A stretch of 64,000 bases of DNA from an uncultured Bdellovibrionales bacterium (GCA_964510065.1 CAZEAC010000008.1:9007-73006), one strand, 5' to 3'. Positions 31,697 through 59,151 are shown, counted from the first letter of the stretch. Notes: a model not told the origin generated them from the letters alone. Numbers and translations are program-made.

Positions 31697-31741
31697 GCGT
31701 TCTCAGTTCCTTTGTTTATTCCTTTTTATGCACCGTATTCG

Positions 31742-32563
31742 CTATGCCAAATCTGCCAAGTGTCTCTCGTTCTGACGAAAATAAGCAATTCCCGCCACGC
31801 ACAGTAGTAGCGAACTCACTCCTGATAGTCCCATCGCAAGGCACGAAGGTTGAGGCATTCCTAAAAGGACCCAACGAGAACTTTCAATGATGGTCACTAG
31901 CGGATTAAGCGCTAAGTAACGTTGAAAGAATCCTGGAAAGAGCGAGCTTGCGTAAAACACAGGCGAGGCAAATAATCCAATTTGTAAAAAAAACGGCACT
32001 ATATGGCGAATGTCTCTATATTGAGCGCTCAATCCCGCGACAAAAGTCGAAATACCGACAGTAGTGAGGAACAACGCACACAACACCAACACAATAAAGA
32101 GCGATCCAACATTAAAGGCAATTCCATAAGACCACGCCATCGCCATAAATAGGACGAATAAAAGTATAAAATCCACGGAACTCGCCAAAATAGCCGCGAG
32201 CGGAATTAGAAGCCGCGGAAAATAAACCTTGGTCATTATTGGCGCATCCGTCACGACTGACTGCATTGCGCCCTGTACCGATGCGGCAAAAAAATTCCAG
32301 ACGATCAACCCAAGCAGCGCAAAGATCGGATACGGCACATTATCTATCCGAAAAGCATCCACTCTACTGAAGGCTGCATTAAGTATGAGAATCATCAGCA
32401 GCGGCTGTACCACGACCCAAGCAATTCCGATAACAGTTTGACGATAGCGAACTTTAAGGTACCGTAAAGTAAGCAGCCATAGAAGATCGCGGAATTCAAA
32501 GAGTTCTCTCAGCCTGAGTGCTTGCCAGCCATTTTTTTTTTCAATAACGATCGGTGTAATCAT
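31742..32563 (-). CDS. wzm: ABC-2 type polysaccharide export permease Wzm
   Basis: 273 aa with 6 TM segments. The N-terminal ...FRDLLWLLTLRYLKVRYRQTVIGIAW is the typical ABC-2 Wzm/KpsM start. It lies immediately upstream of wzt. Confidence 0.8.
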   Translation of the reverse strand: MITPIVIEKKNGWQALRLRELFEFRDLLWLLTLRYLKVRYRQTVIGIAWVVVQPLLMILILNAAFSRVDAFRIDNVPYPIFALLGLIVWNFFAASVQGAMQSVVTDAPIMTKVYFPRLLIPLAAILASSVDFILLFVLFMAMAWSYGIAFNVGSLFIVLVLCALFLTTVGISTFVAGLSAQYRDIRHIVPFFLQIGLFASPVFYASSLFPGFFQRYLALNPLVTIIESSRWVLLGMPQPSCLAMGLSGVSSLLLCVAGIAYFRQNERHLADLA

Positions 32564-36182: not shown

Positions 36183-37949
36183 GTGTATTCGATTGGCATA
36201 AATGAAGGAATCAACGGCTCAGTCGTCGTCACCAAAGACGAACAGACCATATTTGCGCTTCAAGAAGAACGCATAAACCGCTTGAAGGAATTTCATGGTT
36301 TTCCCGTGAAAGCACTGAGCTTTGCGCTGCAGTATTTAAACCTAGATCCAAGCCAAGTTGAGTTTGTATGCCTCTCTAACTTATCGAGCTCCGTGCGCGA
36401 CCGAGCCACGTTTCAAAGACAATATGCTCAACGCGCGCGATCTTTCTCTCAGCGACTTCTTTCGGGAGATTTCACCCTCTACCGTGATTACGTGTGGCCG
36501 TTTCTCCCGCCGCTATTAGTCGAGTATGCTCGAAAGGTCGGCTCACATCGAGCGAACAGGATCGTTGAAAACACGGTTCGTGAGCATGGCTTCGCAGCTT
36601 CGCGAATCAAGCGCTGCCATCATCACCTCGCCCATGCGTCAGCCGCCTATTTCGCCTGCAGAAAAGATCCGATAACGCCGCACCTTGTACTTACCTTGGA
36701 TGGCGGCGGTGATTCGGATTGCGCGCATGTGTACCTCGCGTCAAAGGGTACTCTGAAATTGCTCGACTCAACACCCGCCGGCAATTCTATTGGAAACATC
36801 TATTCATGTGTCACTCAGGCATTAGGAATGATTCCACATGAGCATGAATACAAGCTTATGGGACTCGCAGGCTATGTCGACCCACGACATGCCACAACAT
36901 TACGCGCACATTTCGAGCGTTATCTCGAAATTGACCGTGCTCGTCCCGCGCGCTTCAAACGTAAGACATGGAGACTCACCTCACATTTACAACCTGTTTT
37001 GTTCAAGCAGGTATATTCGCAACGCTTTGATAATATATGCGGAGGATTGCAAGCGTTTACCGAAGCGCTTCTCCACGATTGGGTCACGGGGCTGATCGCG
37101 CACACCGGCGTAAGGAATGTTGTGGCCGCGGGGGGAGTCTTCATGAATGTCAAAGCGAACAAAATAATCGCCGAACTCCCCGAAATTGAACATTTTGACG
37201 TCTTTCCCTCGTGTGGCGATGAAAGTCTTGCGTTCGGATCGAATTGGTATCAACTTTCAACCGCGAAGCCCGATCTCCAGGATCGGATCAAGCTGCCAAG
37301 CCTTTATCTTGGGCCGGATGCATCTTTTGATATCGCCACAGCGCTCGAGCTTGCTCGCGCGGCAAACTTCCACATTGAGCCGCTGCACGACACCAACGAA
37401 GTCGTCGCGGCACTCCTTGACCAGGGGCAAATAGTAGCTCGTTGCTGCGGCAGAATGGAATTTGGCGCTCGCGCGCTTGGAAATCGATCAATTTTGGCCG
37501 ATCCCTCCAACACCGGCGTCATTTCCCGAATTAATCGAATGATCAAATGTCGTGACTTCTGGATGCCGTTTGCTCCCGCAGTTCTTTATGAATGCGTGAA
37601 TGATTACATACGGATTCCCAAATCACTGCCGCAAAAGATGCTGTCGCCCTACATGATGCATGCTTTTGATACAACAAGACAAAAGAACGACCTCTGTGCC
37701 GCACTTCATCCCTATGACAATACTGCCCGCGCACAAATAGTGGTAAAGGAACAGAATCCAAAATTTCACGATCTGATTGAACGTTTTCGGCGAAAGAGAG
37801 GAATCGGAGCACTCCTTAACACGTCATTTAATATTCATGGCTCTCCGATTGTCATGGGAGCGGTCGACGCGATGGATGTATTTATTCGATCGGACCTAAA
37901 CTATTTGCTCATCGACGATGTCTTAATTAGCAAAAGCACGACGCATTAG
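36183..37949 (+). CDS. NodU/CmcH-family O-carbamoyltransferase (second copy)
   Basis: The N-terminal YSIGINEGINGSVV, HHLAHASAAYF and the C-terminal ...LNTSFNIHGSPIV block are all present. The start is GTG. Confidence 0.8.
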   Translation: MYSIGINEGINGSVVVTKDEQTIFALQEERINRLKEFHGFPVKALSFALQYLNLDPSQVEFVCLSNLSSSVRDRATFQRQYAQRARSFSQRLLSGDFTLYRDYVWPFLPPLLVEYARKVGSHRANRIVENTVREHGFAASRIKRCHHHLAHASAAYFACRKDPITPHLVLTLDGGGDSDCAHVYLASKGTLKLLDSTPAGNSIGNIYSCVTQALGMIPHEHEYKLMGLAGYVDPRHATTLRAHFERYLEIDRARPARFKRKTWRLTSHLQPVLFKQVYSQRFDNICGGLQAFTEALLHDWVTGLIAHTGVRNVVAAGGVFMNVKANKIIAELPEIEHFDVFPSCGDESLAFGSNWYQLSTAKPDLQDRIKLPSLYLGPDASFDIATALELARAANFHIEPLHDTNEVVAALLDQGQIVARCCGRMEFGARALGNRSILADPSNTGVISRINRMIKCRDFWMPFAPAVLYECVNDYIRIPKSLPQKMLSPYMMHAFDTTRQKNDLCAALHPYDNTARAQIVVKEQNPKFHDLIERFRRKRGIGALLNTSFNIHGSPIVMGAVDAMDVFIRSDLNYLLIDDVLISKSTTH

Positions 37950-37957
37950 CGCGTAAT

Positions 37958-38713
37958 TTACCTTTTCGCGACAAAGACCATTTGATGACAATGATACGGA
38001 TCAAATCGCTCTGCGATTGGCTGAAGCCATTGGGGAAGCGGATAAAGCCCAAATCCTCGGCCACGCACCTGTGAAAATCCGACTATTCGAAGATAGCTGC
38101 GAAGTGCCTTAAAGCTAAAGACAACCAGATGCCGATGTGCCGGTGTTTCTGATTCAATATCGACTTTTTCCAATGTAGATGGCGATGAAGGCCTCTGCAG
38201 CGAGAGCAACTCTGATGAATCGGGATGAGGCCCGGTCGACGGCATTCGACCAAGCAGTAAATTCGCCACGGTGAAATAGGTGCTAATATTCGGAGTAAGC
38301 AAAATCAGCGTCCCCCCCGGCGCGAGAACTCGATGACATTCCCGGAGAAAGCGGCAACCATTCAGTAAATGCTCCAACACTGAAAACGCGAACACACACC
38401 GGAAGCTTTCGTTGGGATAAGGGAGCGGTTGATTCAGATCTCCTTGTACAACTTGCAAGCCTTTTGCGGCTGCACGCGAGACCTCGCCCGCACTCCACTC
38501 AATGCCGTAGTATTGCCGGCAATCAATAGTTGTCTTTGCGGCTATCTGCCCAAACCATTGCCCTTCGCCTGCCCCGCAGTCAAGGCAGGCCCCCCCGGAT
38601 TTCAGCACCTCACATGCTTGATCGATCGCTGCCTCATACGCTCGGCGCATCGTACTTTGATACAGCTCGCTCAAATAATCCGATAAAAACATATACCTAT
38701 GCAGCAGAGTCAC
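37958..38713 (-). CDS. class I SAM-dependent methyltransferase
   Basis: LDCGAGEGQW is motif I. VLAPGGTLILLTPN is also present. Confidence 0.65.
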   Translation of the reverse strand: MTLLHRYMFLSDYLSELYQSTMRRAYEAAIDQACEVLKSGGACLDCGAGEGQWFGQIAAKTTIDCRQYYGIEWSAGEVSRAAAKGLQVVQGDLNQPLPYPNESFRCVFAFSVLEHLLNGCRFLRECHRVLAPGGTLILLTPNISTYFTVANLLLGRMPSTGPHPDSSELLSLQRPSSPSTLEKVDIESETPAHRHLVVFSFKALRSYLRIVGFSQVRGRGFGLYPLPQWLQPIAERFDPYHCHQMVFVAKR

Positions 38714-39923
38714 TATGTTGGATTACATATATTCGCTTGAGCTCTCGCAACTGCATTACAAGCCAGGCAACTAACAATCCCTGCAACAATAACGAGAAGA
38801 ACTCGCGCTGCCGGAACGGTTGTAGCAATTCCGGAATCGGAATTAGTCCGGGCACACTTCCTACATTTGAGTAGGAAATTAACAGGTAAAAAATAGTGAG
38901 TATCGAGTAAAGCCACGCCATACCCTTGGTTCGCCAAAATACCACCGAAATCACAGGAATCACCAAATATTGATCCGCAAGCGTGGGCGATAATGCCACC
39001 AGAGCAACTGCATAGTAAAAAATTATATCTCGCACGGGCACAACATCTTCTTTCAGCCTTCCAAGGAGCAAGCAAAGACCGATTACCACGGATGCCCACA
39101 GCAGTTTCGCAAGCATCGCGCATGTGCCTCCACCAAGATCCGAAAATAGACCGGCGATAATTGTCCCTAGCAGTCCATCAGGATAGCCGGTGGCATTCAC
39201 GAAGCGAATCGGATCATACTGCACAACGTCATAAATAAATGCCGCTCGTAGCGTTGGGTCGGTCAACCAGGGAAGTAGTCCAATGACGACCAAAGAATAT
39301 GTCACTGTCACGTATAGAAGTCGCCTCTGCAAACTTCCGCACGAGCGCACGCTGAGAATACATAGCGGCCAGAATAAGAAAACGTGCTTTGTAAGTATCG
39401 ACATCGAAAGCAACACAATACTGATGCCATAAAACAAATTTCTTTTACGCGATTGTTTTCGGGTCAGCACAATCCAACTTGCCAGCGCTAGAAATATCGC
39501 CACGTTCTCTATCTGTGAATGGAATCCAGTAATGAGAAATGAAATTGGATGTACCAGGTAGAGCAGTCCGGCGCCGATCCCTAGCAAGCGCCAAAGCACT
39601 ACCGCAATTCCCACATCAGCTAAGGAAAGAAAAGCCGCCCATACTATATGAAATGCCTCACGATTTCCTGGAATCCACTCAAGTCCAAGTTGGTAACACC
39701 AGACCAGCGGCGTCCATAGAAGCGGTCCATATGGCCAGCGTGTAGTCACTGGATACGGATCTTTTCCATCAAGTAGCGTACGAGCAACGAGCGCAAATGA
39801 GTCGATGTCGTAGTTGTGTCCTAACGATGCAAGCCAAATCCGCAGCACTAGTGCCGCGATCGCTACAATGACAAAGACTGCAAGCGAACGAAATGATAAG
39901 GCGCACATTTTATTATCAGTCAT
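38697..39923 (-). CDS. DUF2029/GT87-like membrane glycosyltransferase (GT-C)
   Basis: 408 aa and polytopic. The first loop reads DIDSFALVARTLLDGKDPYPV (D ... PY). It overlaps both neighbours, suggesting operonic coupling. Confidence 0.5.
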   Translation of the reverse strand: MTDNKMCALSFRSLAVFVIVAIAALVLRIWLASLGHNYDIDSFALVARTLLDGKDPYPVTTRWPYGPLLWTPLVWCYQLGLEWIPGNREAFHIVWAAFLSLADVGIAVVLWRLLGIGAGLLYLVHPISFLITGFHSQIENVAIFLALASWIVLTRKQSRKRNLFYGISIVLLSMSILTKHVFLFWPLCILSVRSCGSLQRRLLYVTVTYSLVVIGLLPWLTDPTLRAAFIYDVVQYDPIRFVNATGYPDGLLGTIIAGLFSDLGGGTCAMLAKLLWASVVIGLCLLLGRLKEDVVPVRDIIFYYAVALVALSPTLADQYLVIPVISVVFWRTKGMAWLYSILTIFYLLISYSNVGSVPGLIPIPELLQPFRQREFFSLLLQGLLVAWLVMQLRELKRIYVIQHSDSAA

Positions 39924-41565
39924 GGTAACTCGAAGATATTCCGAGGAGAGTTTTTATGCCTTTTGAAAGCTCCACAATTCCTATCATTGTTGTGACGCAA
40001 ATAAACGGCATGACTAAAATCATCTCTTTATGCCAACGGAAACTAAGAATTGCTTCAGAGAAAACAATAAATCCAAGTATAACTATAGACCCTATGCACG
40101 TCACCCGGGAACTATACATGGGCGATTGTCTTACGCTGCGAACTAGTGACGTCGCAAAGCTCACCAAGAAAAGAAATGAAATGACCATCGTGGGAAGTAC
40201 CTGAGTACCGCTTATGAGCGCCTGGAATATCACAAATCCCGGACGCCAAACCCAGTATTGGTTGGTTGGATTGAAGAACGCACGGGTAGGAGGGCCTTGA
40301 TATGAATAAAAACCGAATCCTTTGGGAACAAACCCCGCGCTAGAATCTACTTGACTTGGAACCATCATTTCTACTGCAAGGCCTCGTGCGGTGACCACAA
40401 CGCCATTAATGATTGATTTTAGGTATCGCCATCGATAATGCCACGCGGCTTCAAGGAACACGCGCACACCCAAGGTATCACCTTCAGCCAGTCCAAGATA
40501 ATAGGTGGTTGGACTAAAGGCTTCAAACCAGGACCATTGAACAGGCGGCAAATTCTCGATCAACTTGTCCAGAACGTCGCTCTCTGCTTTCAAGATATAC
40601 AGATACTTCGCGCGATATCGTTGGATATCGGGCGAGATCCAATTGATATTATTGATACCACCAACATTCTTGTTGTCCCAAGGTAACAACGAATTAAGGA
40701 CCATGAGCCGTTTACCGTTGACTCCGATCTCGGCGAGGTGCCGGTAGTCCTCGTCAGGAAGAATAGATCTCGTTCGGTAAAGCAGTACCCACGCGTGATC
40801 ATAACTAAGCACAGTTGTTCCCGTGGTTATTCGATGCGGCACTACCTTAAACAGCCACACTACTGCAAAGAAGCTCATGACAAAGCACGTTGCATTGGCG
40901 CATCGCATTGTCCGGGAGCGCGGCATGACAATAATTATTCCAATTGGAACAAGTACGAAATAGAGCACATTGAATTTACAAAGATAGGAAAGCGCGAATA
41001 GTGCTCCTGACAATGAGAAGCAGACGAGTGCTTTTTTATCTGATTTCAAATTCACGCCGTACCAACATAGGCACACGCACAGAATAAGAAATGTTACTTG
41101 CATCCATTCAGGATAAAATAAGGACGTCAAGCCTAGAATTCCCCAATGAAATCCAAAAAGGAGAATGGCACCATCAGCGACGATACGGCCATATATCGCC
41201 CTTAGTACGTGGCAAAACGGGATCAGCGCAAGCACGACGAGCGTATGCTGAATTGCAATGAGAAAATATAGACGTGCATGTGGAAAGTGCTTACCTACCG
41301 AATCGAGTCCTAAAAGCCCAAACAGTCCCATGACAAAGGGGTATCCTCCAGCATGAACTAGGTTGGAATGGTGATTAATTATCATGTCAAGATAATTGCC
41401 TGCATCAAAAGCAGTATTGGGTCCGAAAGTGATTACAAATAGCGCATGAATAGCGGCAACATACCAAATTACCGCTGGAACCATACGAATCACCGCGCCG
41501 ATAGAACGAGGCGCAGTACAATCAACTAACTCAGTCGGGTGTGGCGCTATCACTCTTTTTACCAA
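39916..41565 (-). CDS. large polytopic membrane protein with central periplasmic domain (GT-C-like, uncharacterised)
   Basis: 549 aa with TM bundles at both ends and a hydrophilic segment of about 200 aa in the middle. No family motif recognised. The start is uncertain; an alternative Met lies at 41484. Confidence 0.5.
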   Translation of the reverse strand: MVKRVIAPHPTELVDCTAPRSIGAVIRMVPAVIWYVAAIHALFVITFGPNTAFDAGNYLDMIINHHSNLVHAGGYPFVMGLFGLLGLDSVGKHFPHARLYFLIAIQHTLVVLALIPFCHVLRAIYGRIVADGAILLFGFHWGILGLTSLFYPEWMQVTFLILCVCLCWYGVNLKSDKKALVCFSLSGALFALSYLCKFNVLYFVLVPIGIIIVMPRSRTMRCANATCFVMSFFAVVWLFKVVPHRITTGTTVLSYDHAWVLLYRTRSILPDEDYRHLAEIGVNGKRLMVLNSLLPWDNKNVGGINNINWISPDIQRYRAKYLYILKAESDVLDKLIENLPPVQWSWFEAFSPTTYYLGLAEGDTLGVRVFLEAAWHYRWRYLKSIINGVVVTARGLAVEMMVPSQVDSSAGFVPKGFGFYSYQGPPTRAFFNPTNQYWVWRPGFVIFQALISGTQVLPTMVISFLFLVSFATSLVRSVRQSPMYSSRVTCIGSIVILGFIVFSEAILSFRWHKEMILVMPFICVTTMIGIVELSKGIKTLLGISSSYHD

Positions 41566-42196
41566 TTACTAAAAACTGCCGTCCGAAGAAGGGCCATACA
41601 AACGGCATCGCTAGATACAGTCGAGTGAGCAACGATGACGCCGGCAATCGCCCGCGAAAAGAGAATGGCAAAAACTTTCTGATTGTTCGTTCAATGCTAT
41701 ATCCGGCGGCGTAGAGATGTTCGCCAATCGAGACATCTGTCAAAACAAGCCGGTGATCCGCACAATCGAAGTACTCTCGGGAACAGTACTTAAAATTGGG
41801 TCCCATGATCGCGATACGTCCTTGCGGCTTGAGGCAACGATACATTTTTTGCAAAAGCGCGCTAATCTCTTCGGGCGAATGCAAATGTTCGAGAAAATTC
41901 GAAATATAAATTAAATCAAAACGTGCATCAGGCAAATCAAGCTCTAGTGTGTTGCCTTTTAGAAAATGAACTTTTGAATCCATGTGCGCCGGCTCCCGCA
42001 AATCGACTCCCCATTTATCAGGACTGGGCATGGCTTTGATAAATTCCATGTCGCCACATGCGGGATCAAGCACCGAGTGTGGAGCACCCATGCTGCGATA
42101 AAACCACCGCGCAATCTCTCCCCACACGACTTCCTTTGAGGCGCGGCTTACACCGGCAAATCGATATTCATAAATACGGTCGTAGTTCACCGACAT
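41531..42196 (-). CDS. class I SAM-dependent methyltransferase
   Basis: VLDPACGDMEF is motif I. LKPQGRIAIMGPN is also present. It overlaps the upstream GT2 stop. Confidence 0.6.
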   Translation of the reverse strand: MSVNYDRIYEYRFAGVSRASKEVVWGEIARWFYRSMGAPHSVLDPACGDMEFIKAMPSPDKWGVDLREPAHMDSKVHFLKGNTLELDLPDARFDLIYISNFLEHLHSPEEISALLQKMYRCLKPQGRIAIMGPNFKYCSREYFDCADHRLVLTDVSIGEHLYAAGYSIERTIRKFLPFSFRGRLPASSLLTRLYLAMPFVWPFFGRQFLVIGKKSDSATPD

Positions 42197-42894
42197 TTCC
42201 TATAGAGTGCGTACCAATACCAATAAAGATAACGCGGGAGCCATTTCATCAAACGAAAGCGCGATTGGCCCGCCGTGCGATCGCGCCAACAGGTCGCGAC
42301 TTCCGAAATCTTATAACCTTGGAAATGTCCTTTAATCACCAATTCCATTCCGAGTTCAAAACCGCCTTTGCTCTCAATTACAATCGCATCAAGCACCCGT
42401 CGCCGATACAGCTTAAAATTATTGGTAATATCATGCGTGGGTATCCGTATTAGATGGTACAAACTCACACCCGCGAGACGCGAAAGTGTGCGCTTTATCA
42501 GCGGTCCTCCGATTTGTCGCCCTCCGCTCATGTAGCGTGAAGCACATACAATATCAGATCCCTCACGCGCCTTTTGCATCATCGCATTAATTACCGAGGG
42601 AGGATCGGAAAGATCGGCCATCGTTACCACCACATATTCCGCAGTGGTCTCCTCAAAGCCAGTTTTCATCGCATTCAGCACACCACGGCCGTATTTATTG
42701 CGAAGATAACGAATTGGAAGTCCGAGACGCGTCTGCGCTTTTCTCGCGGGTACAAGAGTTGAATCTTCCTCAAAATCATAGACTAGACAAATCTCATAAT
42801 CCTGCCCTACTTGCTTCGAAATCTCCTCGAGAGCCTCAGTAATATTTTCACCCTCGTTGTAGACAGGAAGCACAAGCGACAGCTGCGCGGACAC
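42187..42894 (-). CDS. GT2 polyprenyl-phosphate sugar synthase (DPM1/GtrB-like, soluble form)
   Basis: LSLVLPVYNEGENI...DYEICLVYDFEEDST...VVVTMADLSDPP matches the DPM1-like GT2 blocks. It is 235 aa with no TM tail. Confidence 0.7.
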   Translation of the reverse strand: MSAQLSLVLPVYNEGENITEALEEISKQVGQDYEICLVYDFEEDSTLVPARKAQTRLGLPIRYLRNKYGRGVLNAMKTGFEETTAEYVVVTMADLSDPPSVINAMMQKAREGSDIVCASRYMSGGRQIGGPLIKRTLSRLAGVSLYHLIRIPTHDITNNFKLYRRRVLDAIVIESKGGFELGMELVIKGHFQGYKISEVATCWRDRTAGQSRFRLMKWLPRYLYWYWYALYRKCR

Positions 42895-42897
42895 GTG

Positions 42898-43917
42898 TTA
42901 AATTCCTCCAATTTTCACCTGGTGCTCAATCCAGGGCACCACTTCATCGAGGATCGTATTTAGATCAGTATTTGCCTCATACCCTAGAAGCGATCGCGCC
43001 TTCTCCACATCAGGCACACGTTTCTGGACATCATATTGAAACGGCTCGTCAAAAACGTAATGAAACGGCTTCGATGGATTGAGCCGCTTCCAGATACGCT
43101 CCGCGAGCTCAAGCACGGTCGTTGACGTGGCCGTCGAAATGTTAAAATCATTGTTGATTGCCCGCTCATGTTCTATGCAAAGACGGATGCCACGGGCCAG
43201 ATCACCCGCATAGGTATAGTGACGAATCTGGCCTCCGTTCCCCAAGATGCGCAAAGGATCCTGCCCTTTGAGAACCTTCTGAACAAGATCAGGAACTACA
43301 TGACTCATCGCCAACTTGACGTTTCCCGAAAGAATTTCACGGTCGGAAAGCGCCCGTTTTTCGCCGGTGCCTACACAATTGAACGGTCGAATAATTGTAA
43401 AAGGCAACTTATATTGCTCGTAGGCGCCCTTTGCAAAATATTCGCACGCAAGCTTCTGAAATCCATAGGTACTCCGCGGCGGCGGACTGGTGAACTGCGC
43501 CCCCTCTTTCGAGGGAAATTCGCGCACTGACTCGTACACCATACTCGAGCTCAATATATTAATCTTCTTCAGAGCACGATTTTTAAAAGCCCACAATGCC
43601 GCGTCAAAAGTTGAGGCGGTAATCCTTTCATTCTCCGCAAGTAAGTCGTACGCGAACTCATGAAAGTAGGAGATCCCTCCAATCATCGCGGCAGCTGCCA
43701 CTACTTGATCACAATCGCCGATCAGCTCGCGCATTAATTTTTGATCTTTCGCATCGCCCTCGACGAAATGGTAATTGGCGTGCTGATCGTACGATTTCTG
43801 TACTTTGCCGTACTTAGAAAAATTATCTATTCCAACAACGGTATGACCGTACCTAAGAAGTTCGTCAACAAGATAGCCGCAAATGAATCCCGCCGAGCCG
43901 GTCACGAGAATCTTCAT
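42898..43917 (-). CDS. NAD-dependent epimerase/dehydratase, UDP-glucuronate 4-epimerase-like
   Basis: MKILVTGSAGFICGYL...VVGIDNFS matches the family N-terminus. The start ATG overlaps the stop of the upstream dehydrogenase (ATGA). Confidence 0.7.
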   Translation of the reverse strand: MKILVTGSAGFICGYLVDELLRYGHTVVGIDNFSKYGKVQKSYDQHANYHFVEGDAKDQKLMRELIGDCDQVVAAAAMIGGISYFHEFAYDLLAENERITASTFDAALWAFKNRALKKINILSSSMVYESVREFPSKEGAQFTSPPPRSTYGFQKLACEYFAKGAYEQYKLPFTIIRPFNCVGTGEKRALSDREILSGNVKLAMSHVVPDLVQKVLKGQDPLRILGNGGQIRHYTYAGDLARGIRLCIEHERAINNDFNISTATSTTVLELAERIWKRLNPSKPFHYVFDEPFQYDVQKRVPDVEKARSLLGYEANTDLNTILDEVVPWIEHQVKIGGI

Positions 43918-45104
43918 GCGACGTTCCGATCCCAAATTCCCCAACAATCGACGTAAGGTTTATCAACCTTAATCGTACGATATTCACGATGAGGCTGCGC
44001 CAAAATTACCCCGTCGGATCGAGCAATTGCCTCTTGTGCCGACGGAAGCTCCGCGAAGTAGCAATCGCAGGTAATAACATGCGCCAGTTTCATTTCTAAT
44101 ATCTTCTTTATCTTGAATGATAAACTATCACGACAGTCATCATTATCAGCTTTAAAAGTCATACCAAGAATTGCAACTGTCTTACCCTCTAAAGAGTTAA
44201 GCTGCTTCTCCAATTGCTCAACTAAGAATACCGGCAAGCCCTCGTTTATCAGCATTGCGGACTGTCCCAAAGAAAAATTACTTTTATAAAATGCCGCAAG
44301 TTGCATCGTGTCTTTGAGTAAGCAGGGTCCGGCGGTAAGACCCGGCTGAGTATAATGAGCAGCACGCGGATACTCGTCACGCAAAGCATTATAAATTTTG
44401 TAAAAATCGAGCCCCAATGACTCGACCATCATATAAAACTGATTTGCAATCGCGAATTCAAGATAACGCCAAGAGTTGGTGATAAGTTTGGCAACTTCTG
44501 CTTCCACAGGATTCAAGATGACAGTCTTTGGGGCGATGGTACGAAATAGGGCAACTGCTTGCTTCTCGGCTTCGGGTGACGTCGCTGACACAAGCTGTGG
44601 AAGTTTGAATATCTCATCAATCCCTTTTCCTTGCACAATTCGTTCCGGACAGAACGCGAGGAGACTTTGTGAAAATTTCTTATGAAGCAGTTTATCAAGA
44701 ATCTGGACAATACTTGGATAGACCGTACTTCGCATCACCAGCAGCATGTCTTCGTGCATCAGTGGAAGGTACTGCTCGACAACATCAACAACGTCATGAA
44801 TCCGTGGATTAAAATGTTCATCGATCGGCGTGCCAGTTACAAAACATAGCACATCACAGTGCGCGGCAAGTTTCTTATCGGTACTTGCAATCAGATTTTT
44901 TTCTCGCACCTCTCGCAAAATAACTTCAGCCCCTTCCTCGAGAAACGGCGGCTCTCCGCGATTAATTTTCTCCACGGCTTCCACATTGATGTCGATCAGT
45001 ACTACCGAGTGACCTACCGAAGCAAAGGCAAGGCCGAGTGGAAATCCAACATGGCCGCATCCCCCTATAATCGCAATTTTTCTAAAGCCGTTCTTGGTGC
45101 TCAT
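43914..45104 (-). CDS. UDP-sugar 6-dehydrogenase (Ugd/WecC family nucleotide-sugar dehydrogenase)
   Basis: KIAIIGGCGHVGFPLGLAFA is the N-terminal Rossmann motif. At 396 aa the length fits the family. Confidence 0.75.
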   Translation of the reverse strand: MSTKNGFRKIAIIGGCGHVGFPLGLAFASVGHSVVLIDINVEAVEKINRGEPPFLEEGAEVILREVREKNLIASTDKKLAAHCDVLCFVTGTPIDEHFNPRIHDVVDVVEQYLPLMHEDMLLVMRSTVYPSIVQILDKLLHKKFSQSLLAFCPERIVQGKGIDEIFKLPQLVSATSPEAEKQAVALFRTIAPKTVILNPVEAEVAKLITNSWRYLEFAIANQFYMMVESLGLDFYKIYNALRDEYPRAAHYTQPGLTAGPCLLKDTMQLAAFYKSNFSLGQSAMLINEGLPVFLVEQLEKQLNSLEGKTVAILGMTFKADNDDCRDSLSFKIKKILEMKLAHVITCDCYFAELPSAQEAIARSDGVILAQPHREYRTIKVDKPYVDCWGIWDRNVA

Positions 45105-45299
45105 TTTCTATCTGTCGCAGTGATGTAATCATCCCAGAAAAATACCAGCAGTTCAATGATTTAAGATTTAACGCATGGACGATTTTCAAGCTGTTGCCTG
45201 CCCACGCGCAATGCGACAAGCTAGAACTTCGGGTAACTATTCGTACGGAATGTATCACATGTTCTCATTTTTCAACTACATGACCGCGGCGAGAAAGTA

Positions 45300-46046
45300 G
45301 TGAGCACGCCGACGACGCCGTTAATTCAGCAGCTACTGCAGCAGTATCTGCCTCGCGAGATATCGACACAATGTAGCGCCAGCGAGCAGCTAAAAAAAAT
45401 TACCGCACATTGCCGAAACCCTTCGGCGATACTTGATCTGGGTTGCGGCCGCGGTGATTCGCAACATCTCTTTACTGCTCTAGTTCCCGCAACACACTGG
45501 ATTGGTCTCGATATCAGAGATTCACCGGAGGTCCGGACGCGCACCACGACGTCGGGACCACGTGCCATTTGTAGTTTTGATGGGATTCGTGTTCCATTCC
45601 AGGATAACAGCTTTGATCTAGTGTATAGCTCTCAAGTTTTCGAGCACGTACGTCACCCAGAGCCGCTATTACATGAAGTGCGTCGAGTACTCCGCCCAGG
45701 TGGTCTTTTTTTCGGCTCAACTTCGAGTCTTGAGCCGTTTCACTCGTATAGCTATTGGAACTACTCACCCTTCGGTTTCATTGAGATATTGAAGAGTAGC
45801 GGCCTCACTCCCCTCGAGATCCGTCCGGGAATTGACGCGCTTACCCTCATTTGCAGGCAAATTTTAAAGCGTCCGCGCTTCATGGAACGCTATTTTCGCA
45901 GTGAGTCGCCACTCCATCGCCTTATCAATTTGTACAGCCTGATTAAACGTTTGCAGCACGATCAAATAAATGCGTTAAAATTACAATTTGCGGGCACCTT
46001 CTTCTTTATTGCTCAGGTCGACAACAGTTCGTTAAAGACATCGTGA
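45300..46046 (+). CDS. class I SAM-dependent methyltransferase
   Basis: ILDLGCGRGDS is motif I. VLRPGGLFFGST is also present. The start is GTG. Confidence 0.6.
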   Translation: MSTPTTPLIQQLLQQYLPREISTQCSASEQLKKITAHCRNPSAILDLGCGRGDSQHLFTALVPATHWIGLDIRDSPEVRTRTTTSGPRAICSFDGIRVPFQDNSFDLVYSSQVFEHVRHPEPLLHEVRRVLRPGGLFFGSTSSLEPFHSYSYWNYSPFGFIEILKSSGLTPLEIRPGIDALTLICRQILKRPRFMERYFRSESPLHRLINLYSLIKRLQHDQINALKLQFAGTFFFIAQVDNSSLKTS

Positions 46047-47179: not shown

Positions 47180-49012
47180 TTACGGCGCTGAATCCCGCAT
47201 CAGGCACTCTGGGGCGAGAACCTGTAGCGATTTCTCACCAAGTTTTATCACTTCATAACGGCCCGACGCACTCCGCCAAATCACGCCATCGCCGTTCTGC
47301 AGCACGGCACTTTTCGGCAGACTATATCGGGGCTCCCACACCACAAGAGACTGCAGCAACATCAGCGCTTCAGCACAATCGAGCGGCCGCTGGCGAATTA
47401 ACGTGGAGTATTCGCAGTCTATGACCCTCTGCGCCGATAAATAGGAAAGCGCGCCAGTAAGAATATCACCACGATCAGTTTTGCAATTATCCACGCAGCA
47501 AGGCGCAATCATAGTTCGTGATCCTAAATAAAGCTGCCCAAGCAAAAGCTCTTTGCTCACGAAATTTTCCCGATCGGATTCGAAGCCCATAAATGTTGAA
47601 TATGAGGGCATCATTGAAAGAGCCTTAATATTATATGGCAATAAAAAATAATCCGGCGCGACGCGGTCACCCTGCCGAGCCAATTCAAACGGAATCGAAA
47701 TAACTGGGCGTCTTTCACGATTTTCCTCGGCTAGATATCGGTAAAGAGCGACTTCTTCGCTGTGCGCGGAATCCGGCGACATTACCGCAAAAGTCGCGCG
47801 GGCGACCACGACCGCGCTTCCTGCTAGCAGCACCATGAGTGCGCATATGCCAAAGCTTCGAACTTTCGACAGTCTCGTCACGAGCAAAAAACAGACCAGC
47901 GAAGAGAGTATCGGATGAAGATAAAACAGTGAAAAGTGGTAGGGCCCAATCCAGCGACGGGTGATTGGCTGGCTGTTCATCAGTAAAAATTCGGCGATAT
48001 AGATCGCGGCGATGGTGAGTATCGCCAGTTTCCATCGATCAATGCGCGAATCACGCTTCCAAAGCACGATCAATAAAACACCCACGATGGTCATGGTCAG
48101 TGGCGAAATGAACCAATAGTCCTCGAAATGAAGAAGATCCGCGGCGGAATGCGTCGCGAGCGCCGCACCCGGTTGGTAGAGCAGACCATCGCCGAACAGC
48201 AGTAGTAAACCCGGCACGGAGAATAGCAACGCGGCGCAATAGAAGGCCGTAAGCCAGCGCACGAGCGCGATACGTTCATCAATCACGAATGCGAGGTGCA
48301 GCATCGACAGTACGCCGACAAGCACCATAAGCGCTCCCCACGCAAAAAAATATGCGTACAAGGAAAGTCCCGCAACCGCTCCTAGGAAACTCGCCTGCAG
48401 CAGCGAATACTTTCGCCTTGAAAGCACGATGAGAAAAGGCACTAACACACCTAAAAAGAAAACAAATCCAACCTGGGTGTACAGCGCGCGAAGTACCGGA
48501 ACACTCGGAAAGAACTGATGACTCTGAGTTGCGAGCGATTTCAAGGAAGGAATGGAAACATGCAGAAGTTCGCCGAGAGATCCAATCCAAGGAAACTGAA
48601 TAGCAACAATTGCACCGACCTCCGACGGCAGCACTCCCGCCCCAAATGCACGACGGAACAGGGTACTCATCAATAAATATGCGCTCAAACAGCAGAACAA
48701 GTCGACGATGAGAGCCGCTTGGACCGGCGTGGCGCCGATTGCGCTAAAGAAATGCCCCATAATAATATCAAGGAGCCCGTGCGGAATTCGACTGCCCAAT
48801 TGCTGGAAGGCCTCAAGCATTCCCGCGCGCATCGTATAGATCGAGGAAAACGGTATACGTCCCGCGTCAAAGGCCTGAGCGACATAGAGTGCTTCGTCCC
48901 AATCGGAGAATGACCTGGGGGAATATCCGTCATACGTTATCAGCGCCGCGATTGCGGGCACGTTGATAAAAATAGCGAAAGATAGAGCACGCGTAAGAAG
49001 TCCGAAATTCAC
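47180..49012 (-). CDS. large polytopic membrane protein with C-terminal periplasmic domain (GT-C-like/polymerase-like)
   Basis: 610 aa with 12 or more TM segments followed by a hydrophilic tail of about 170 aa containing several Cys residues. Confidence 0.5.
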   Translation of the reverse strand: MNFGLLTRALSFAIFINVPAIAALITYDGYSPRSFSDWDEALYVAQAFDAGRIPFSSIYTMRAGMLEAFQQLGSRIPHGLLDIIMGHFFSAIGATPVQAALIVDLFCCLSAYLLMSTLFRRAFGAGVLPSEVGAIVAIQFPWIGSLGELLHVSIPSLKSLATQSHQFFPSVPVLRALYTQVGFVFFLGVLVPFLIVLSRRKYSLLQASFLGAVAGLSLYAYFFAWGALMVLVGVLSMLHLAFVIDERIALVRWLTAFYCAALLFSVPGLLLLFGDGLLYQPGAALATHSAADLLHFEDYWFISPLTMTIVGVLLIVLWKRDSRIDRWKLAILTIAAIYIAEFLLMNSQPITRRWIGPYHFSLFYLHPILSSLVCFLLVTRLSKVRSFGICALMVLLAGSAVVVARATFAVMSPDSAHSEEVALYRYLAEENRERRPVISIPFELARQGDRVAPDYFLLPYNIKALSMMPSYSTFMGFESDRENFVSKELLLGQLYLGSRTMIAPCCVDNCKTDRGDILTGALSYLSAQRVIDCEYSTLIRQRPLDCAEALMLLQSLVVWEPRYSLPKSAVLQNGDGVIWRSASGRYEVIKLGEKSLQVLAPECLMRDSAP

Positions 49013-49131
49013 GGCATTACCATACGATTCTCATCGAGACGAAGGCAACCTGTCACCCACCAGACTCATGCGACGAACAGCCAACTTTTATGAACTTGAT
49101 GAGTATTTAAACAACACGCTACTGTGATTGT

Positions 49132-50361
49132 ATGTCCGCACCCTTGAAGGCAACTATCTCTGTTATCATTATAGCTACCGCGTTGTGCTGTTCGCCACTG
49201 CGAATTTTATTTGAAACAAACTCACCGAATATCGCGCTTAATTACCCCGACAGCACGCAATATCTCGAAATGGCCGCGCAAACATTGTCCTACGACCCGA
49301 CACCCTACACACAGCACAATCCAATTCCGGGCTCGCTCTTACGTCCGCCACTTTACCCCGGCTTACTGAGCGCGACGTTTGCATTGTGGGGGGTCAATCC
49401 AACGGCGATACTCATCCTTCATGCACTTGTTGCAATAATTTGTATCGGTTGCAGTGCTTATCTTCTTAGAAAGACAGCTCCCCTCGCATTATGGGTCGTC
49501 ATCGAGCTCCTTTCACTGCGATTCATTAGTGCATTCTACTCGTACGTCGGCCCTGAATGGATTGCCACCTGCGTGACAATTGTTTTAGTGAGCGTGATTG
49601 CGCGTTATCTTTTTGAGCCGACACTTCATTGGCTGATTGTCGCGAACCTCCTTGTTGTACTACTCGCGATTAGCCGTTTTGAGCTTATTTGGCTTTTCTT
49701 TCTGGTGGCGGCAATTGCGATGATTGCTCAACATACGCACGCACGATGGTGGGGAGCCGCCGGCGCGCTGCTGTCAATTGCCGCTGTTGTAATCATCAAG
49801 ACGATGACGCTTCCTTCGCAGCATGGACTGCTCGGCGCACTTTCACTGCTGCAAAGCACCAAAGACCTGCCGCCTTTCAATTATCCGCACGCGGCCACCT
49901 GTGTAGAAACGCAGGCCCTTTCAATTTTGAACAGTCGCGGGGACGCGGTTACCTGCTTCGAGGACATTGCGACGCTGCATGCACATTGTAAGGCGAGCTG
50001 GAAAGAAGTAAGTCATGTCCTCATCTATACGTCGATGCTTAGAATCCTGCAGTTTCCGGTTGAGTTTTTCAGTAACATTGTAAATCGTTCCTGGCCTTTG
50101 ATTATCGGGCTGCCTTTTCTTGCAATTTTTACGGTGGGAATAAAGCGATTTACTGGGCATTCCGTGGCCGCCTATATCGCGCTTATCGCGTCGCTTATTT
50201 TTTGCTTCCAAATTCTCCTCATCGCCACTATCAACGTGATGGTCGATCGCTACTATCTTCCGCAACTCTCGCTGCTCGCCTTTGGACTAATGAGCTTCTT
50301 CGTCCACCTCGGATCTACTCGATCGAAAGCGATAGCGGGCGCACGGAGAGTCTTCACTTAG
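49132..50361 (+). CDS. GT-C membrane glycosyltransferase (ArnT/PMT-like)
   Basis: 409 aa and polytopic. The first loop reads ...LRPPLYPGLL (the PPLYP-type motif seen in GT39/83 enzymes). Confidence 0.5.
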   Translation: MSAPLKATISVIIIATALCCSPLRILFETNSPNIALNYPDSTQYLEMAAQTLSYDPTPYTQHNPIPGSLLRPPLYPGLLSATFALWGVNPTAILILHALVAIICIGCSAYLLRKTAPLALWVVIELLSLRFISAFYSYVGPEWIATCVTIVLVSVIARYLFEPTLHWLIVANLLVVLLAISRFELIWLFFLVAAIAMIAQHTHARWWGAAGALLSIAAVVIIKTMTLPSQHGLLGALSLLQSTKDLPPFNYPHAATCVETQALSILNSRGDAVTCFEDIATLHAHCKASWKEVSHVLIYTSMLRILQFPVEFFSNIVNRSWPLIIGLPFLAIFTVGIKRFTGHSVAAYIALIASLIFCFQILLIATINVMVDRYYLPQLSLLAFGLMSFFVHLGSTRSKAIAGARRVFT

Positions 50362-50419: not shown

Positions 50420-52369
50420 ATGTGCGGAATCTGCGGAATATTCGGCCGCTCTCACGAAGCAGCCGTGCAATCAATGAAGAACGCCCTTCATCATCGCGGC
50501 CCCGATGATAGCGGCCACTATTCGGATGAAAAAGTCAGCCTAGGCTTTGCGCGACTTGCCATAATCGATCTTAGTCCTCACGCTCATCAACCGCTGTTCA
50601 GCGCGGGTCGGGATATCATTATCGTGTATAATGGTGAGCTATATAATTATCAAAGCGAACGTAAAATCCTTGAGGCACGCGGACATACATTTACTTCAAC
50701 GTCCGATACTGAAGTTGTTTTGCGGCTTTACGAAGAGTATGGCGATGAGTTTCTTAAACGGCTTCGCGGCATGTTCGCGCTTGCGATCTACGATCGGCGC
50801 GGCGGACGCGGCCATGAACGGCTACTTCTCGCGCGCGATCCGCTCGGCATCAAGCCGCTTCTCTATTCTCGACTTTCCGGGGCAGTGGTATTTGCTTCAG
50901 AGATAAAAGCATTACTGGCGAGTGGTCTGGTAGCACGAGAGCTCGACGCCAACGCATTGCGGCTTCTCCTCACCTTCGGATCGGTGCAGCAACCCGCCAC
51001 CATCATTAAGAATGTTGCGATGCTCCCGCCCGGGCATGTTTTGGTCGCGACTTCCGGAGACGAATTTACGATTAAACCCTACTGGCATCTTCGCGAAGCA
51101 TACGACAGCACCATCGCCGGCCTCGACTATCAAGAACAGGTTCAGTATCTCAAAAGCGCACTCGAGGAATCAGTACGATTACATCTTATTGGAGATAGGC
51201 CGACCGGAGCTTTCTTGAGCGGCGGCGTCGATTCTTCACTGCTCGTTGCAATCATGTCAAAGTTGTCATCTCGTAAAGTTTCAACGTTTTCGGTTGGATT
51301 TTCGGATGAGGAGCCCACACTCGACGAAAGTGGCGATGCTGCCCGCACCGCGAATTTTATCGGCACTGATCATTCACATGTAGTGGTAACAGCCGATCAA
51401 GTTCGAGATAGATTTTCGCACGTCGTGTCCGCACTTGACCAACCTTCAGTTGATGGAGTCAATTCATATTTTGTATCTCAAGCCGCAAGCTCAAAAGTTA
51501 CCGTCGCTCTCTCGGGTACGGGGAGCGACGAACTCTTTGCGGGCTATCCTTGGTTCCTCGACATGCTGCACTTTAATGAGAACAGATTACGCCGTTATAG
51601 TGCATACTTATTAAGCAAGGCATTCGCATTTGGAGAGGACTTGAAAGGCACGATATTTCGTGCGAAGGCACGTGATTCCGCGTTATTACGCTCACTGCGA
51701 CGGCAAAGTGACTTCCTCAGCCGATTTGCAAGTAACTATTTGATATTTGGCGCGCAAGGCACCGCGACAATACTTGCACCGCGCTTTGCTCGGAAAGTAA
51801 TCGAAGAGAGGGACGACCTGATCCCGAACGATCTCCTCGCCGAGCGAAGCACTGTTTCTCGAGTGAGCGGTTTGTGTCTCGGTGGATATCTTCGAAATCA
51901 GCTGCTTCGAGATATTGACGCCGCCTCGATGGCGCATTCGCTCGAAGTAAGGGTTCCTTATCTTGATATTCGAGTGGTAAGCGCCGCGCTTTCGTTACCC
52001 GACGACTCAAAGATTTCACGCTTTACCGAACATGCGGCACGCTTTGGGAGCTATGCGGAAACGGGCACGAAGCGAATTCTATTTGATGTCGGCAAGGGAT
52101 TGCTCCCTCAATGGCTCGAGACCGCACCGAAGAGAGGATTTAGCATGCCGATCGGCACGTGGCTTCGTAGATCGCTCAAGACATTTATGCGCGACGTACT
52201 TTCGGTGGATTCCATTCGAGCTAGCGGAATCTTCAATGTTGAAGAGACGCAGCGGGTACTCGACGGATTCCTTGCGGGGTCGGCACATTGGACAAGGCCT
52301 TGGCTACTGCTTATGGTTGAATGCTGGGCACGCGAAGTATTGGCTCCAACGAAGACTTCTATTCAATAG
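50420..52369 (+). CDS. asparagine synthase-like glutamine amidotransferase (AsnB family, second copy)
   Basis: MCGICGIF provides the N-terminal Cys. SGGVDSS is the PP-loop. The protein is 649 aa. Confidence 0.85.
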   Translation: MCGICGIFGRSHEAAVQSMKNALHHRGPDDSGHYSDEKVSLGFARLAIIDLSPHAHQPLFSAGRDIIIVYNGELYNYQSERKILEARGHTFTSTSDTEVVLRLYEEYGDEFLKRLRGMFALAIYDRRGGRGHERLLLARDPLGIKPLLYSRLSGAVVFASEIKALLASGLVARELDANALRLLLTFGSVQQPATIIKNVAMLPPGHVLVATSGDEFTIKPYWHLREAYDSTIAGLDYQEQVQYLKSALEESVRLHLIGDRPTGAFLSGGVDSSLLVAIMSKLSSRKVSTFSVGFSDEEPTLDESGDAARTANFIGTDHSHVVVTADQVRDRFSHVVSALDQPSVDGVNSYFVSQAASSKVTVALSGTGSDELFAGYPWFLDMLHFNENRLRRYSAYLLSKAFAFGEDLKGTIFRAKARDSALLRSLRRQSDFLSRFASNYLIFGAQGTATILAPRFARKVIEERDDLIPNDLLAERSTVSRVSGLCLGGYLRNQLLRDIDAASMAHSLEVRVPYLDIRVVSAALSLPDDSKISRFTEHAARFGSYAETGTKRILFDVGKGLLPQWLETAPKRGFSMPIGTWLRRSLKTFMRDVLSVDSIRASGIFNVEETQRVLDGFLAGSAHWTRPWLLLMVECWAREVLAPTKTSIQ

Positions 52370-59139: not shown

Positions 59140-59151
59140 TCTCTCACACGA

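Follow-up and report, generated by a model that had tools for sequence, protein, structure and literature searches.

Does the occurrence of a sugar dehydrogenase and of AsnB-type amidotransferases in a single glycan locus indicate that the sugar made by the former is amidated by the latter? The question is raised by a 64,000-nucleotide stretch of DNA from an uncultured Bdellovibrionales bacterium (CAZEAC010000008.1:9007-73006), which was analysed as a whole and is hereafter called the window. A nucleoside diphosphate (NDP)-sugar 6-dehydrogenase (DH) and an extended short-chain dehydrogenase/reductase (SDR) are encoded side by side at 42898-45104 of this window, and the locus also holds two AsnB-family glutamine amidotransferases. 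A preliminary description of the window had proposed that the pair feeds both amidotransferases and that uronamides are formed. We consider, with fair confidence, that the pair is instead the sugar-supply arm of a self-contained module, which resembles the Arn, Rgt and Gtr systems and makes a lipid-linked donor for a glycosyltransferase (GT) of the GT-C type, because a GT2 enzyme, a methyltransferase and GT-C-type membrane proteins are conserved with the pair, and AsnB is not found beside it in any of the loci compared.

The pair and its operon

Both genes of the pair are read from the minus strand. The DH (43914-45104; 396 amino acids, aa) is the first gene of the cassette and is followed by the SDR (42898-43917; 339 aa), and the stop codon of the DH shares the sequence ATGA (43917..43914) with the start codon of the SDR; the preliminary description was accurate on the placement of both genes and on their overlap. 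All three UDPG_MGDP_dh domains of Pfam (PF03721, PF00984 and PF03720) are matched by the DH, which also passes the NDP-sugar dehydrogenase family model TIGR03026 (249 bits; cutoff 189.8). Its catalytic cysteine, located in GPCLLKD, aligns with the catalytic cysteine of 4r16 and Cap5O, and the GxGxxG dinucleotide motif of the N-terminus (iiGgcGhvG) is visible in the same alignment. The SDR matches the Epimerase family of Pfam (PF01370; 142 bits) and carries the Rossmann motif TGSAGFICG, and its residues S124 and Y151-x3-K155 are invariant across the family alignment.

The open reading frames (ORFs) downstream of the SDR overlap or nearly abut, and a self-contained operon, which extends on the minus strand from 45104 to approximately 38697, is opened by the DH and the SDR. 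The third gene encodes a short GT2 (42187-42894, minus; 235 aa), probably of the polyprenyl-phosphate-sugar synthase type (ArnC/PgfS/DPM-like). This protein matches Glycos_transf_2 of Pfam; among NCBIfam models it scores best, though under the cutoff in each case, with PgfS, ArnC and dolichyl-phosphate hexose transferase, and it is 27% identical to the catalytic domain of Escherichia coli ArnC (E 1e-20). No transmembrane (TM) segments were predicted in the GT2, which appears to be soluble or peripheral. The next gene encodes an S-adenosylmethionine (SAM)-dependent methyltransferase (41531-42196, minus; 221 aa; Methyltransf_11/25), an optional member of the cassette.

The predicted user of the lipid-linked donor is encoded by the following gene (39916-41565, minus), the product of which is a 549-aa protein with approximately 10 TM helices and the predicted fold of a divergent GT-C glycosyltransferase. 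No Pfam family matches this protein, and it has seven homologs only, one of which is called PMT_2. When its AlphaFold model (pLDDT 78.8, pTM 0.80) was compared with the PDB by Foldseek, the top 23 matches were all GT-C enzymes, including AglB/STT3, EmbA/B/C, ArnT, ALG3/9/12, Pmt4, AftD and PimE, with probabilities of 0.9-1.0 and modest TM-scores of 0.26-0.40. GT-C enzymes usually carry a catalytic acid in the first extracytoplasmic loop, and two residues of this loop in the 549-aa protein, N50 and D54, are invariant among its homologs. In another locus, a homolog of the 549-aa protein carries a fused SDR domain (P0127; L086:1797-4562), and genes for a GT2 and a further SDR come next. The fusion was considered as a hint that the SDR acts on a lipid-linked sugar, and this idea was dropped because the fused domain falls outside the cassette SDR family.

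The stop of the GT-C gene is overlapped by a gene for a 408-aa membrane protein with approximately eight TM helices (38697-39923, minus), which has no Pfam match, carries the first-loop motif NYDIDSF and is a candidate for a second GT-C or a flippase. A second methyltransferase (37958-38713, minus; Methyltransf_11/23) overlaps the ORF upstream of it and ends this series of minus-strand genes. Whether it belongs to the cassette is uncertain, and it co-occurs with the cassette, not consistently, in 9 of the 83 loci described below. A scan of 37700-45400 for promoters and terminators gave counts at chance level.

Conservation of the cassette across phyla

In a scan that included one genome per species, at least 571 species representatives were found to encode the SDR. 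The best 80 species-representative loci of these carriers were examined, and they include members of Bdellovibrionota, Acidobacteriota, Melainabacteria, Saccharibacteria, Treponema, Bacteroidia, Victivallales, Kiritimatiellia, Lachnospiraceae, Omnitrophota, Nitrospirota, Myxococcota, Chloroflexia, Planctomycetes and Calothrix. The 120 best database matches of the SDR come from unrelated phyla and are 75-81% identical to it across the full 339 residues. Synteny was analysed in 83 loci of the SDR (L001-L083) from approximately 20 phyla, with up to 10 kb of flanking sequence on each side, by tblastn searches with the proteins of the window.

In these 83 loci, the SDR is 69-78% identical to the window copy (median 73%). 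A DH is located immediately upstream of the SDR in 81 of them, and its identity to the window DH has a median of 46% (28-63%). An overlap of 4 nt or 1 nt joins the DH to the SDR in 35 loci, and in 64 of the 81 the two genes are no more than 20 nt apart. Because the order of DH and then SDR is kept in 81 of the 83 loci with tight spacing, the pairing is far beyond chance. In three loci (L030, L034 and L072), the DH of the cassette is a non-orthologous replacement with 28-31% identity to the window DH; these replacements are likewise WecC-like and score below all equivalog cutoffs.

The short GT2 is present in 76 of the 83 loci, mostly directly downstream of the pair, with a median identity of 51%. 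Homologs of the 221-aa methyltransferase occur in 29 loci (approximately 32% identity) at a variable position within the cassette, and the commonest gene orders are DH-SDR-GT2 (48 loci) and DH-SDR-methyltransferase-GT2 (15 loci). Moreover, in approximately 35 loci the gene immediately after the cassette encodes a polytopic protein (450-740 aa, 7-12 TM helices). Of nine such membrane proteins tested against Pfam, two matched PMT_2 weakly, and a phmmer search with the 549-aa and 408-aa ORFs of the window against the downstream proteins of the 83 loci returned no match. Beyond the DH, GT2 and methyltransferase, no other gene of the window was recurrent in the tblastn searches of the 83 loci. The cassette can stand by itself, as in an Omnitrophota genome (L001) where DH, SDR, GT2 and a 540-aa membrane protein are found alone amid housekeeping genes. 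In Saccharofermentans, the order is a 572-aa protein, DH, SDR, methyltransferase, GT2, a 667-aa protein and a PMT_2 GT-C. The preliminary description had named the gene families of the locus correctly one by one but had overlooked the conserved GT2, methyltransferase and GT-C directly downstream of the pair, and it is these genes that point to a lipid-linked donor pathway.

The identity of the SDR across approximately 20 phyla (69-81%) greatly exceeds that of its partners, the DH (median 46%) and the GT2 (median 51%). This degree of conservation suggests either unusually strong constraint or a recent and wide horizontal spread. No relative of the SDR was detected at E <= 1e-40 in collections of sequenced plasmids and phages. 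The family grades out to relatives of 35-60% identity and comprises 322 clusters at E <= 1e-30, and, as judged by these similarities, it is a large family with a tight core and not an orphan. In two Nitrospirota loci (L061 and L065), a sugar kinase of the PfkB family replaces the DH upstream of SDR-GT2 (approximately 9002-9991 in L065).

Reactions of the dehydrogenase and the SDR

The DH scores below every equivalog cutoff of NCBIfam. The models of uridine diphosphate (UDP)-N-acetylmannosamine (ManNAc) dehydrogenases give 160 bits (cutoff 750) and 129 bits (cutoff 459) and thus outscore the Ugd-type models AglM (112 bits; cutoff 670) and TuaD (111 bits; cutoff 700), and the TviB/WbpO-type model gives 67 bits (cutoff 592). 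The best solved structures are 4r16, Cap5O and 3vtf, and by score the enzyme is WecC/archaeal-like. The most likely substrate is UDP-glucose (UDP-Glc) or UDP-N-acetylglucosamine (UDP-GlcNAc). UDP-Glc is a reasonable precursor because GalU, the UTP-glucose-1-phosphate uridylyltransferase, is encoded in the same locus (61370-62248, plus; TIGR01099, 351 bits with a cutoff of 326.8); GalU may supply UDP-Glc within the locus and therefore possibly the substrate of the DH. No co-occurrence of GalU with the cassette was seen in the 83 loci.

According to a different explanation, the DH is a UDP-ManNAc dehydrogenase of the WecC/Cap5O type, which together with a WecB-type 2-epimerase (24539-25606) would provide UDP-N-acetylmannosaminuronic acid to a cytoplasmic Leloir-type GT, and the adjacency of the SDR and GT2 would be incidental. 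In NCBIfam and the PDB alike, the DH is indeed most similar to UDP-ManNAc dehydrogenases, and the score of the 2-epimerase with the wecB model (280 bits) exceeds the cutoff of 210. However, the DH lies far under the cutoffs of the former models, and the UDP-Glc dehydrogenase 3vtf scores almost equally well. Furthermore, the DH is adjacent to the SDR in 81 of the 83 loci, whereas a homolog of the 2-epimerase is found in 2 of the 83; the cassette stands alone in L001, and the 2-epimerase of the window is part of a conserved trio with a PseB/FnlA-like and an RmlD-like enzyme. We therefore regard this explanation as highly improbable and have rejected it on synteny grounds.

The preliminary description had labelled the SDR as UDP-glucuronate-4-epimerase-like. 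The assignment to the SDR family is right and a 4-epimerase is plausible, but this specific activity is not established by the models, as no NCBIfam equivalog cutoff is reached: LegB gives 96, GalE 88, RmlB 80 and the TviC/WbpP-type model 49 bits. A uronate is the probable substrate because the DH precedes the SDR in 81 of the 83 loci and because Ser125 and Arg300 of the SDR are kept. Ser125 is conserved and occupies the position of S433 in ArnA, and Arg300, in DVQKRVPD, is aligned with R619 in the ArnA segment DVEHRKPS, where GalE has DLPAYWAD; S433 and R619 are residues that we take to be carboxylate contacts in ArnA. The SDR motif is SSSMV[YF]E, with S124-S125-M126 in the place of T432-S433-E434 of ArnA. 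A methionine thus replaces the glutamate of decarboxylases (ArnA E434 / UXS E120), which is presumably essential in the characterised enzymes, in all 17 of the 17 family members aligned, and the SDR departs from the Thr-Ser-Glu motif of decarboxylases. The sequence T-D-E after the catalytic Thr marks the NDP-sugar 4,6-dehydratases (RmlB/Gmd/PseB), and its absence from the SDR, which has SSSMVYE instead, counts against a 4,6-dehydratase.

When the profile of the SDR family was compared with the PDB, the highest scores were obtained for 8vr2 (103 bits), 6zl6 (BcUGAepi, 96 bits) and 4zrm (TmGalE, GalE-type, 96 bits), followed by UXS (78), MoeE5 (70), GalE (61) and ArnA (57). All of these proteins are distant relatives, and the SDR is approximately 25% identical to characterised epimerases of UDP-glucuronic acid (UDP-GlcA). 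Two reactions therefore have to be weighed. The first is C4 epimerisation to UDP-galacturonic acid (UDP-GalA), for which the SDR is a candidate as a UDP-hexuronate 4-epimerase of an ultra-conserved clade. The second is an oxidative decarboxylation of the ArnA/UXS type by the SDR of the same cassette, and in this case the donor would be polyprenyl-phosphate-linked xylose, arabinose or a 4-keto-pentose derivative, in a pathway that resembles Arn but omits the aminotransferase and formyltransferase steps.

The series of DH, SDR, ArnC-like GT2 and GT-C parallels Ugd-ArnA-ArnC-ArnT, which argues for decarboxylation, as do the D-V-x-x-R-x-P segment with the R619 equivalent that is absent from GalE, the scores of human UXS (71-78 bits) and the STSE motif of 8vr2, the nearest solved relative. 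However, the glutamate is consistently replaced by methionine, the profile places 6zl6 above UXS and ArnA, and N180 is followed by a long loop with many Lys and Arg residues, which is nearer to that of GalE than to the short loop of UXS and ArnA. We consider the decarboxylase explanation unlikely, and C4 epimerisation to UDP-GalA is favoured but unproven, as it is deduced from motifs and profiles. If the cassette model is accepted, our confidence in C4 epimerisation is about evenly balanced, and decarboxylation or other keto-chemistry is a distinctly weaker possibility.

The two AsnB paralogs

The two amidotransferases are encoded outside the cassette, in separate operons and on the strand opposite to the pair. 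AsnB1 (20468-22384, plus) is a glutamine-dependent, adenylate-forming amidotransferase paralog; its start was placed at the ATG at 20468, and an upstream TTG at 20462 was listed by the ORF finder. AsnB2 (50420-52369, plus) is WbpS/eps_aminotran_1-like over its full length. The N-terminal Cys and the PP-loop reported for both proteins in the preliminary description are present: both begin with MCGI, which contains Cys2 of the N-terminal nucleophile (Ntn) glutaminase domain, and the PP-loops are SGGIDSS in AsnB1 and SGGVDSS in AsnB2. The two proteins are 30% identical.

Both proteins pass the broad model TIGR01536 (cutoff 267) with 398 bits for AsnB1 and 430 bits for AsnB2. Both fall short of the TIGR03108 cutoff (816.9): AsnB2 aligns over the full length with 404 bits, and the 303 bits of AsnB1 come from the N-terminal part only. 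The function is not delimited by this cutoff, because AsnB proteins embedded in Wbp-type operons fail it too (339, 341 and 525 bits). The E. coli-type AsnB model NF006949 (cutoff 499) gives fragmented alignments that score below the cutoff, with 291 bits for AsnB2 and 215 bits for AsnB1, and the best solved relative of both proteins is the hydroxyamidotransferase 7ylz, not AsnB. By these comparisons, both proteins look like non-housekeeping paralogs.

It is therefore necessary to consider the explanation in which the pair makes UDP-GalA or UDP-N-acetylgalactosaminuronic acid, like WbpO/WbpP, and AsnB1 and/or AsnB2 amidate the C6 carboxylate, like WbpS/WbqG, so that the glycan contains one or two uronamides. 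The idea is sound in kind. AsnB homologs of the WbpS/WbqG type are genetically required for uronamide formation in Porphyromonas gingivalis, E. coli O121 and Helicobacter pullorum (PMC7468200, PMC6025236). The glutaminase and adenylation motifs are intact in both proteins of the window, neither of which reaches the cutoff for the E. coli-type enzyme, and the AsnB proteins embedded in Wbp-type operons have NCBIfam score profiles like those of AsnB1 and AsnB2. Moreover, the closest homolog of AsnB1 (43%) is encoded in an operon with a UDP-sugar dehydrogenase, a MocA oxidoreductase, a hexapeptide acetyltransferase and a DegT aminotransferase, which is the Wbp route to 2,3-diacetamido-uronic acids (DH-WbpB-WbpD-AsnB-WbpE). 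A second relative lies in a Thermosulfurimonas locus that has a dehydrogenase and the same Wbp-type ingredients, together with a second, AsnB2-type paralog; thus, two of the six contexts sampled for AsnB1 relatives are in or near uronic-acid pathway genes. Finally, the DH is the only carboxylate-forming enzyme recognised in the 64 kb, and AsnB2 is only 5.3 kb from the pair.

These observations do not tie the AsnB proteins to this particular pair, and the synteny data speak against such a link. By tblastn, homologs of AsnB1 or AsnB2 were found within 10 kb on either side of the DH-SDR pair in none of the 83 loci, and this test would detect an arrangement like that of the window because the distance between AsnB2 and the pair is 5.3 kb. 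The reciprocal comparison was based on 80 metagenomic loci of AsnB2 relatives, 46 of which are at least 10 kb long. An NDP-sugar dehydrogenase of any kind was present in 2 of the 80 (2 of the 46 longer loci), both with distant AsnB proteins of 35-36% identity. The proposal that the pair feeds the two amidotransferases is not supported by either comparison. In addition, four of the six AsnB1 contexts are without a dehydrogenase, and no genes of the WbpB, WbpE or WbpD type were found in the window.

The close orthologs of AsnB2 (44-61% identity) instead keep a conserved order of methyltransferase, AsnB and a GT-B glycosyltransferase (GT1). The methyltransferase corresponds to 33915-34898 of the window and the GT to 13996-15213 and 52374-53657. 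Their loci often add a GT4 and a trio of PseB/FnlA-like, RmlD-like and 2-epimerase enzymes, and the closest orthologs adjoin this 6-deoxy-L-N-acetylhexosamine (6-deoxy-L-HexNAc) pathway and are without uronic-acid genes. In the window, the GT-B glycosyltransferase at 52374-53657 (plus; Glycos_transf_1) is translationally coupled to AsnB2, as it starts 4 nt after the AsnB2 stop, and it is 36% identical to its paralog at 13996-15213.

In consequence of the synteny on both sides, we consider it quite unlikely that the pair supplies a uronate for amidation by AsnB1 or AsnB2. The AsnB paralogs probably belong to other modules, each conserved on its own, and are not inherently linked to the pair. 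It remains reasonable that the AsnB proteins amidate a sugar-borne carboxylate, and the presence of some uronamide somewhere in this glycan is somewhat less unlikely than the specific proposal. The co-occurrence of an AsnB paralog and a sugar dehydrogenase in one large locus should be considered insufficient for inferring uronamide formation.

Two side observations concern these genes. Like AsnB, the GT-B glycosyltransferase is present in the locus as two paralogs, and pairs of AsnB1-type and AsnB2-type proteins recur in two other loci (L170 and L109). The trio of the window (24539-27655, minus) consists of a PseB/FnlA-like UDP-GlcNAc 4,6-dehydratase (PseB model, 326 of 408 bits), an RmlD-like reductase and a 2-epimerase positive for the WecB model. 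It is probably a pathway for a 2-acetamido-2,6-dideoxy-L-hexose and is syntenic with AsnB2 orthologs elsewhere.

A proposed pathway and its relation to known systems

In the pathway that we favour, in which the pair supplies the sugar of a lipid-linked donor, the DH would oxidise C6 of a common UDP-hexose, most likely UDP-Glc, and the SDR would convert the resulting UDP-hexuronate, most likely by C4 epimerisation to UDP-GalA or a sugar of this type, with decarboxylation to a pentose as the main alternative. On the cytoplasmic side of the membrane, the soluble GT2 of the ArnC/DPM type would then load the sugar onto polyprenyl phosphate, and the methyltransferase, which is present in approximately one-third of the cassettes, would modify the sugar. 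After flipping, the GT-C would attach the sugar at the outer face of the membrane to the heavily decorated polymer exported by Wzm/Wzt.

Several observations weigh against this pathway. No enzyme of the window other than the DH could be recognised as providing a sugar carboxylate to the two AsnB proteins. The scores of the DH are nearer to UDP-ManNAc dehydrogenases than to Ugd, so that an N-acetylhexosamine substrate could fit. The SDR clade is without any biochemically characterised member; the SDR retains the Arg of the decarboxylase type, its nearest solved relative (8vr2, itself uncharacterised) carries the STSE decarboxylase motif, and a pentose product is possible. The match of the 549-aa protein to the GT-C fold has modest TM-scores and rests on an alignment of seven sequences, and no flippase of the GtrA, ArnE/F or MATE families was found by Pfam in the operon or the window. 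Furthermore, soluble enzymes or Leloir-type GTs, not the GT2, follow the pair in Treponema (L012) and Calothrix (L017). As these two loci show, the pair evidently yields a nucleotide sugar, which is open to direct use as well.

The cassette may be viewed as a widespread variant of the Arn/Rgt/Gtr theme, as judged by gene content and similarity. In the Rgt systems, a UDP-Glc dehydrogenase and a UDP-GlcA 4-epimerase provide the UDP-GalA, and the GT-C transferases are RgtA-D/F. Should the SDR be a 4-epimerase, the cassette would follow the logic of the Rgt systems of Rhizobium, Aquifex and Caulobacter, which proceed from UDP-Glc to UDP-GlcA and UDP-GalA, then to loading by a GT2 and transfer by a periplasmic GT-C. 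RgtE is a bactoprenyl-phosphate-GalA transferase, and RgtD/F are GT-Cs (PMC7663294). The rgt genes, however, are scattered, occur in some Gram-negative bacteria only and act on lipid A or the core, whereas the cassette unites all steps in one operon and is also found in Gram-positive bacteria and bacteria of the candidate phyla radiation (CPR). The cassette also differs in its short GT2 without TM helices, in the distinct clade of its SDR and in GT-Cs that are too divergent for Pfam.

The Arn system (PmrHFIJKLM; Ugd, ArnA, ArnB, ArnC, ArnD, ArnT and ArnE/F) has the same chain of a DH, an SDR acting on UDP-GlcA, an ArnC-type GT2 and a GT-C. The cassette shares with it the 27% identity of the GT2 to ArnC, the equivalents of S433 and R619 of ArnA, and ArnT among the fold matches of the 549-aa protein. 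In contrast to Arn, the cassette is without an aminotransferase, a formyltransferase, a deformylase, the ArnE/F flippase and an equivalent of E434, and it has a methyltransferase instead. The archaeal Agl pathway of Haloferax volcanii comprises UDP-Glc synthesis (AglF), a UDP-Glc dehydrogenase (AglM), a GT2 of the dolichyl-phosphate-hexose type (AglJ) and a SAM methyltransferase that acts on a lipid-linked hexuronic acid (AglP). The GT2s of the window weakly match the models of AglJ and of dolichyl-phosphate hexose transferases. The Agl pathway differs from the cassette in that it serves archaeal N-glycosylation with the oligosaccharyltransferase AglB and has no SDR step, and the sequence similarity is weak.

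Three-component systems are represented by GtrA/B/C and by the PPPRS-MATE-GT136 system of Kelly et al. 2024 (PMC11127046). In these systems, as is predicted for the cassette, a lipid-linked monosaccharide synthase and a GT-C decorate a glycan exported by an ABC transporter after its polymerisation, and an auxiliary SDR diversifies the sugar. The cassette differs in that the sugar would be remodelled at the level of the nucleotide sugar by a dedicated DH and SDR, in that the donor would derive from a UDP-sugar and not from phosphoribosyl pyrophosphate (PRPP), and in that no flippase is recognisable. The WbpO/WbpP/WbpS system of Pseudomonas aeruginosa O6, with WbqG of E. coli O121, PGN_1234 of P. 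gingivalis and WbpO/WbpS of H. pullorum, resembles the window in that a DH, a 4-epimerase-type SDR and an AsnB are encoded in one glycan locus; the catalytic motifs of AsnB are the same, and AsnB2 aligns over its full length to eps_aminotran_1. However, the pair of the window scores low with the TviB/WbpO-type (67 bits) and TviC/WbpP-type (49 bits) models, both AsnB proteins are under the TIGR03108 cutoff, and the pair is never found with AsnB in the 83 loci and is tied to the putative polyprenyl-phosphate GT2 and the GT-C instead.

In the literature that we searched, no description of a cassette of a dehydrogenase, a polyprenyl-phosphate enzyme and a GT-C was found. We tentatively suggest, as a possibility rather short of probable, that the donor made by the cassette is an undescribed lipid-linked sugar, such as a polyprenyl-phosphate hexuronic acid or a methylated or rare-epimer derivative of it, that it is produced by an SDR with a hybrid active site that retains the decarboxylase-type Arg and has Met in the place of Glu, and that it decorates surface glycans or proteins outside the membrane in more than 20 phyla, including Gram-positive bacteria, CPR Saccharibacteria, Melainabacteria and spirochaetes. 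If this is true, the cassette would be a compact, horizontally spread module, the key SDR of which shows 69-81% identity across Saccharibacteria, Acidobacteria and Clostridia, and would represent a widespread route of extracytoplasmic glycan decoration with a new lipid-linked donor. Moreover, the active site of the SDR would stand between those of UDP-GlcA decarboxylases and 4-epimerases and could help to explain how decarboxylation and epimerisation are controlled.

Other features of the glycan locus

Besides Wzm/Wzt, which includes a Wzt_C domain, the window contains genes for at least 12 membrane proteins that resemble GT-C enzymes (four of them like GT87 and one like PMT), GtrB-like GT2s that have TM helices, approximately 10 methyltransferases, two carbamoyltransferases, one acyltransferase_3 and four GDSL proteins. 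This content fits extensive extracytoplasmic decoration. The polytopic ORFs, of which there are at least 12, are located at 4230-8101, 15285-20384, 38697-41565, 47180-50361 and 56785-60348; they are mostly without a family and are probably GT-C enzymes. The four GDSL/SGNH proteins are anchored at their N-termini, and together with the GT-C set they form an exceptionally dense group of extracytoplasmic glycan-modifying functions.

The Wzm/Wzt ABC transporter is encoded at 30455-32563 (minus), with many methyltransferases nearby. The C-terminal carbohydrate-binding domain of its Wzt (PF14524) implies that the exported polymer has a terminal cap. Two carbamoyltransferases of the NodU/CmcH type (10979-12862, minus; 36183-37949, plus) are 28% identical to each other, and their presence implies O-carbamoylated sugars in the product. 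At 8066-9154 (minus), a heptose-1-phosphate adenylyltransferase resembling domain II of HldE (176 bits; cutoff 181.5) is fused to a GmhB-like heptose bisphosphate phosphatase. This fusion points to a nucleotide-heptose among the precursors of the glycan. A gene for a HipA-type toxin kinase (HipA_C and Couple_hipA; 142-1473, minus) is located at the margin of the locus.

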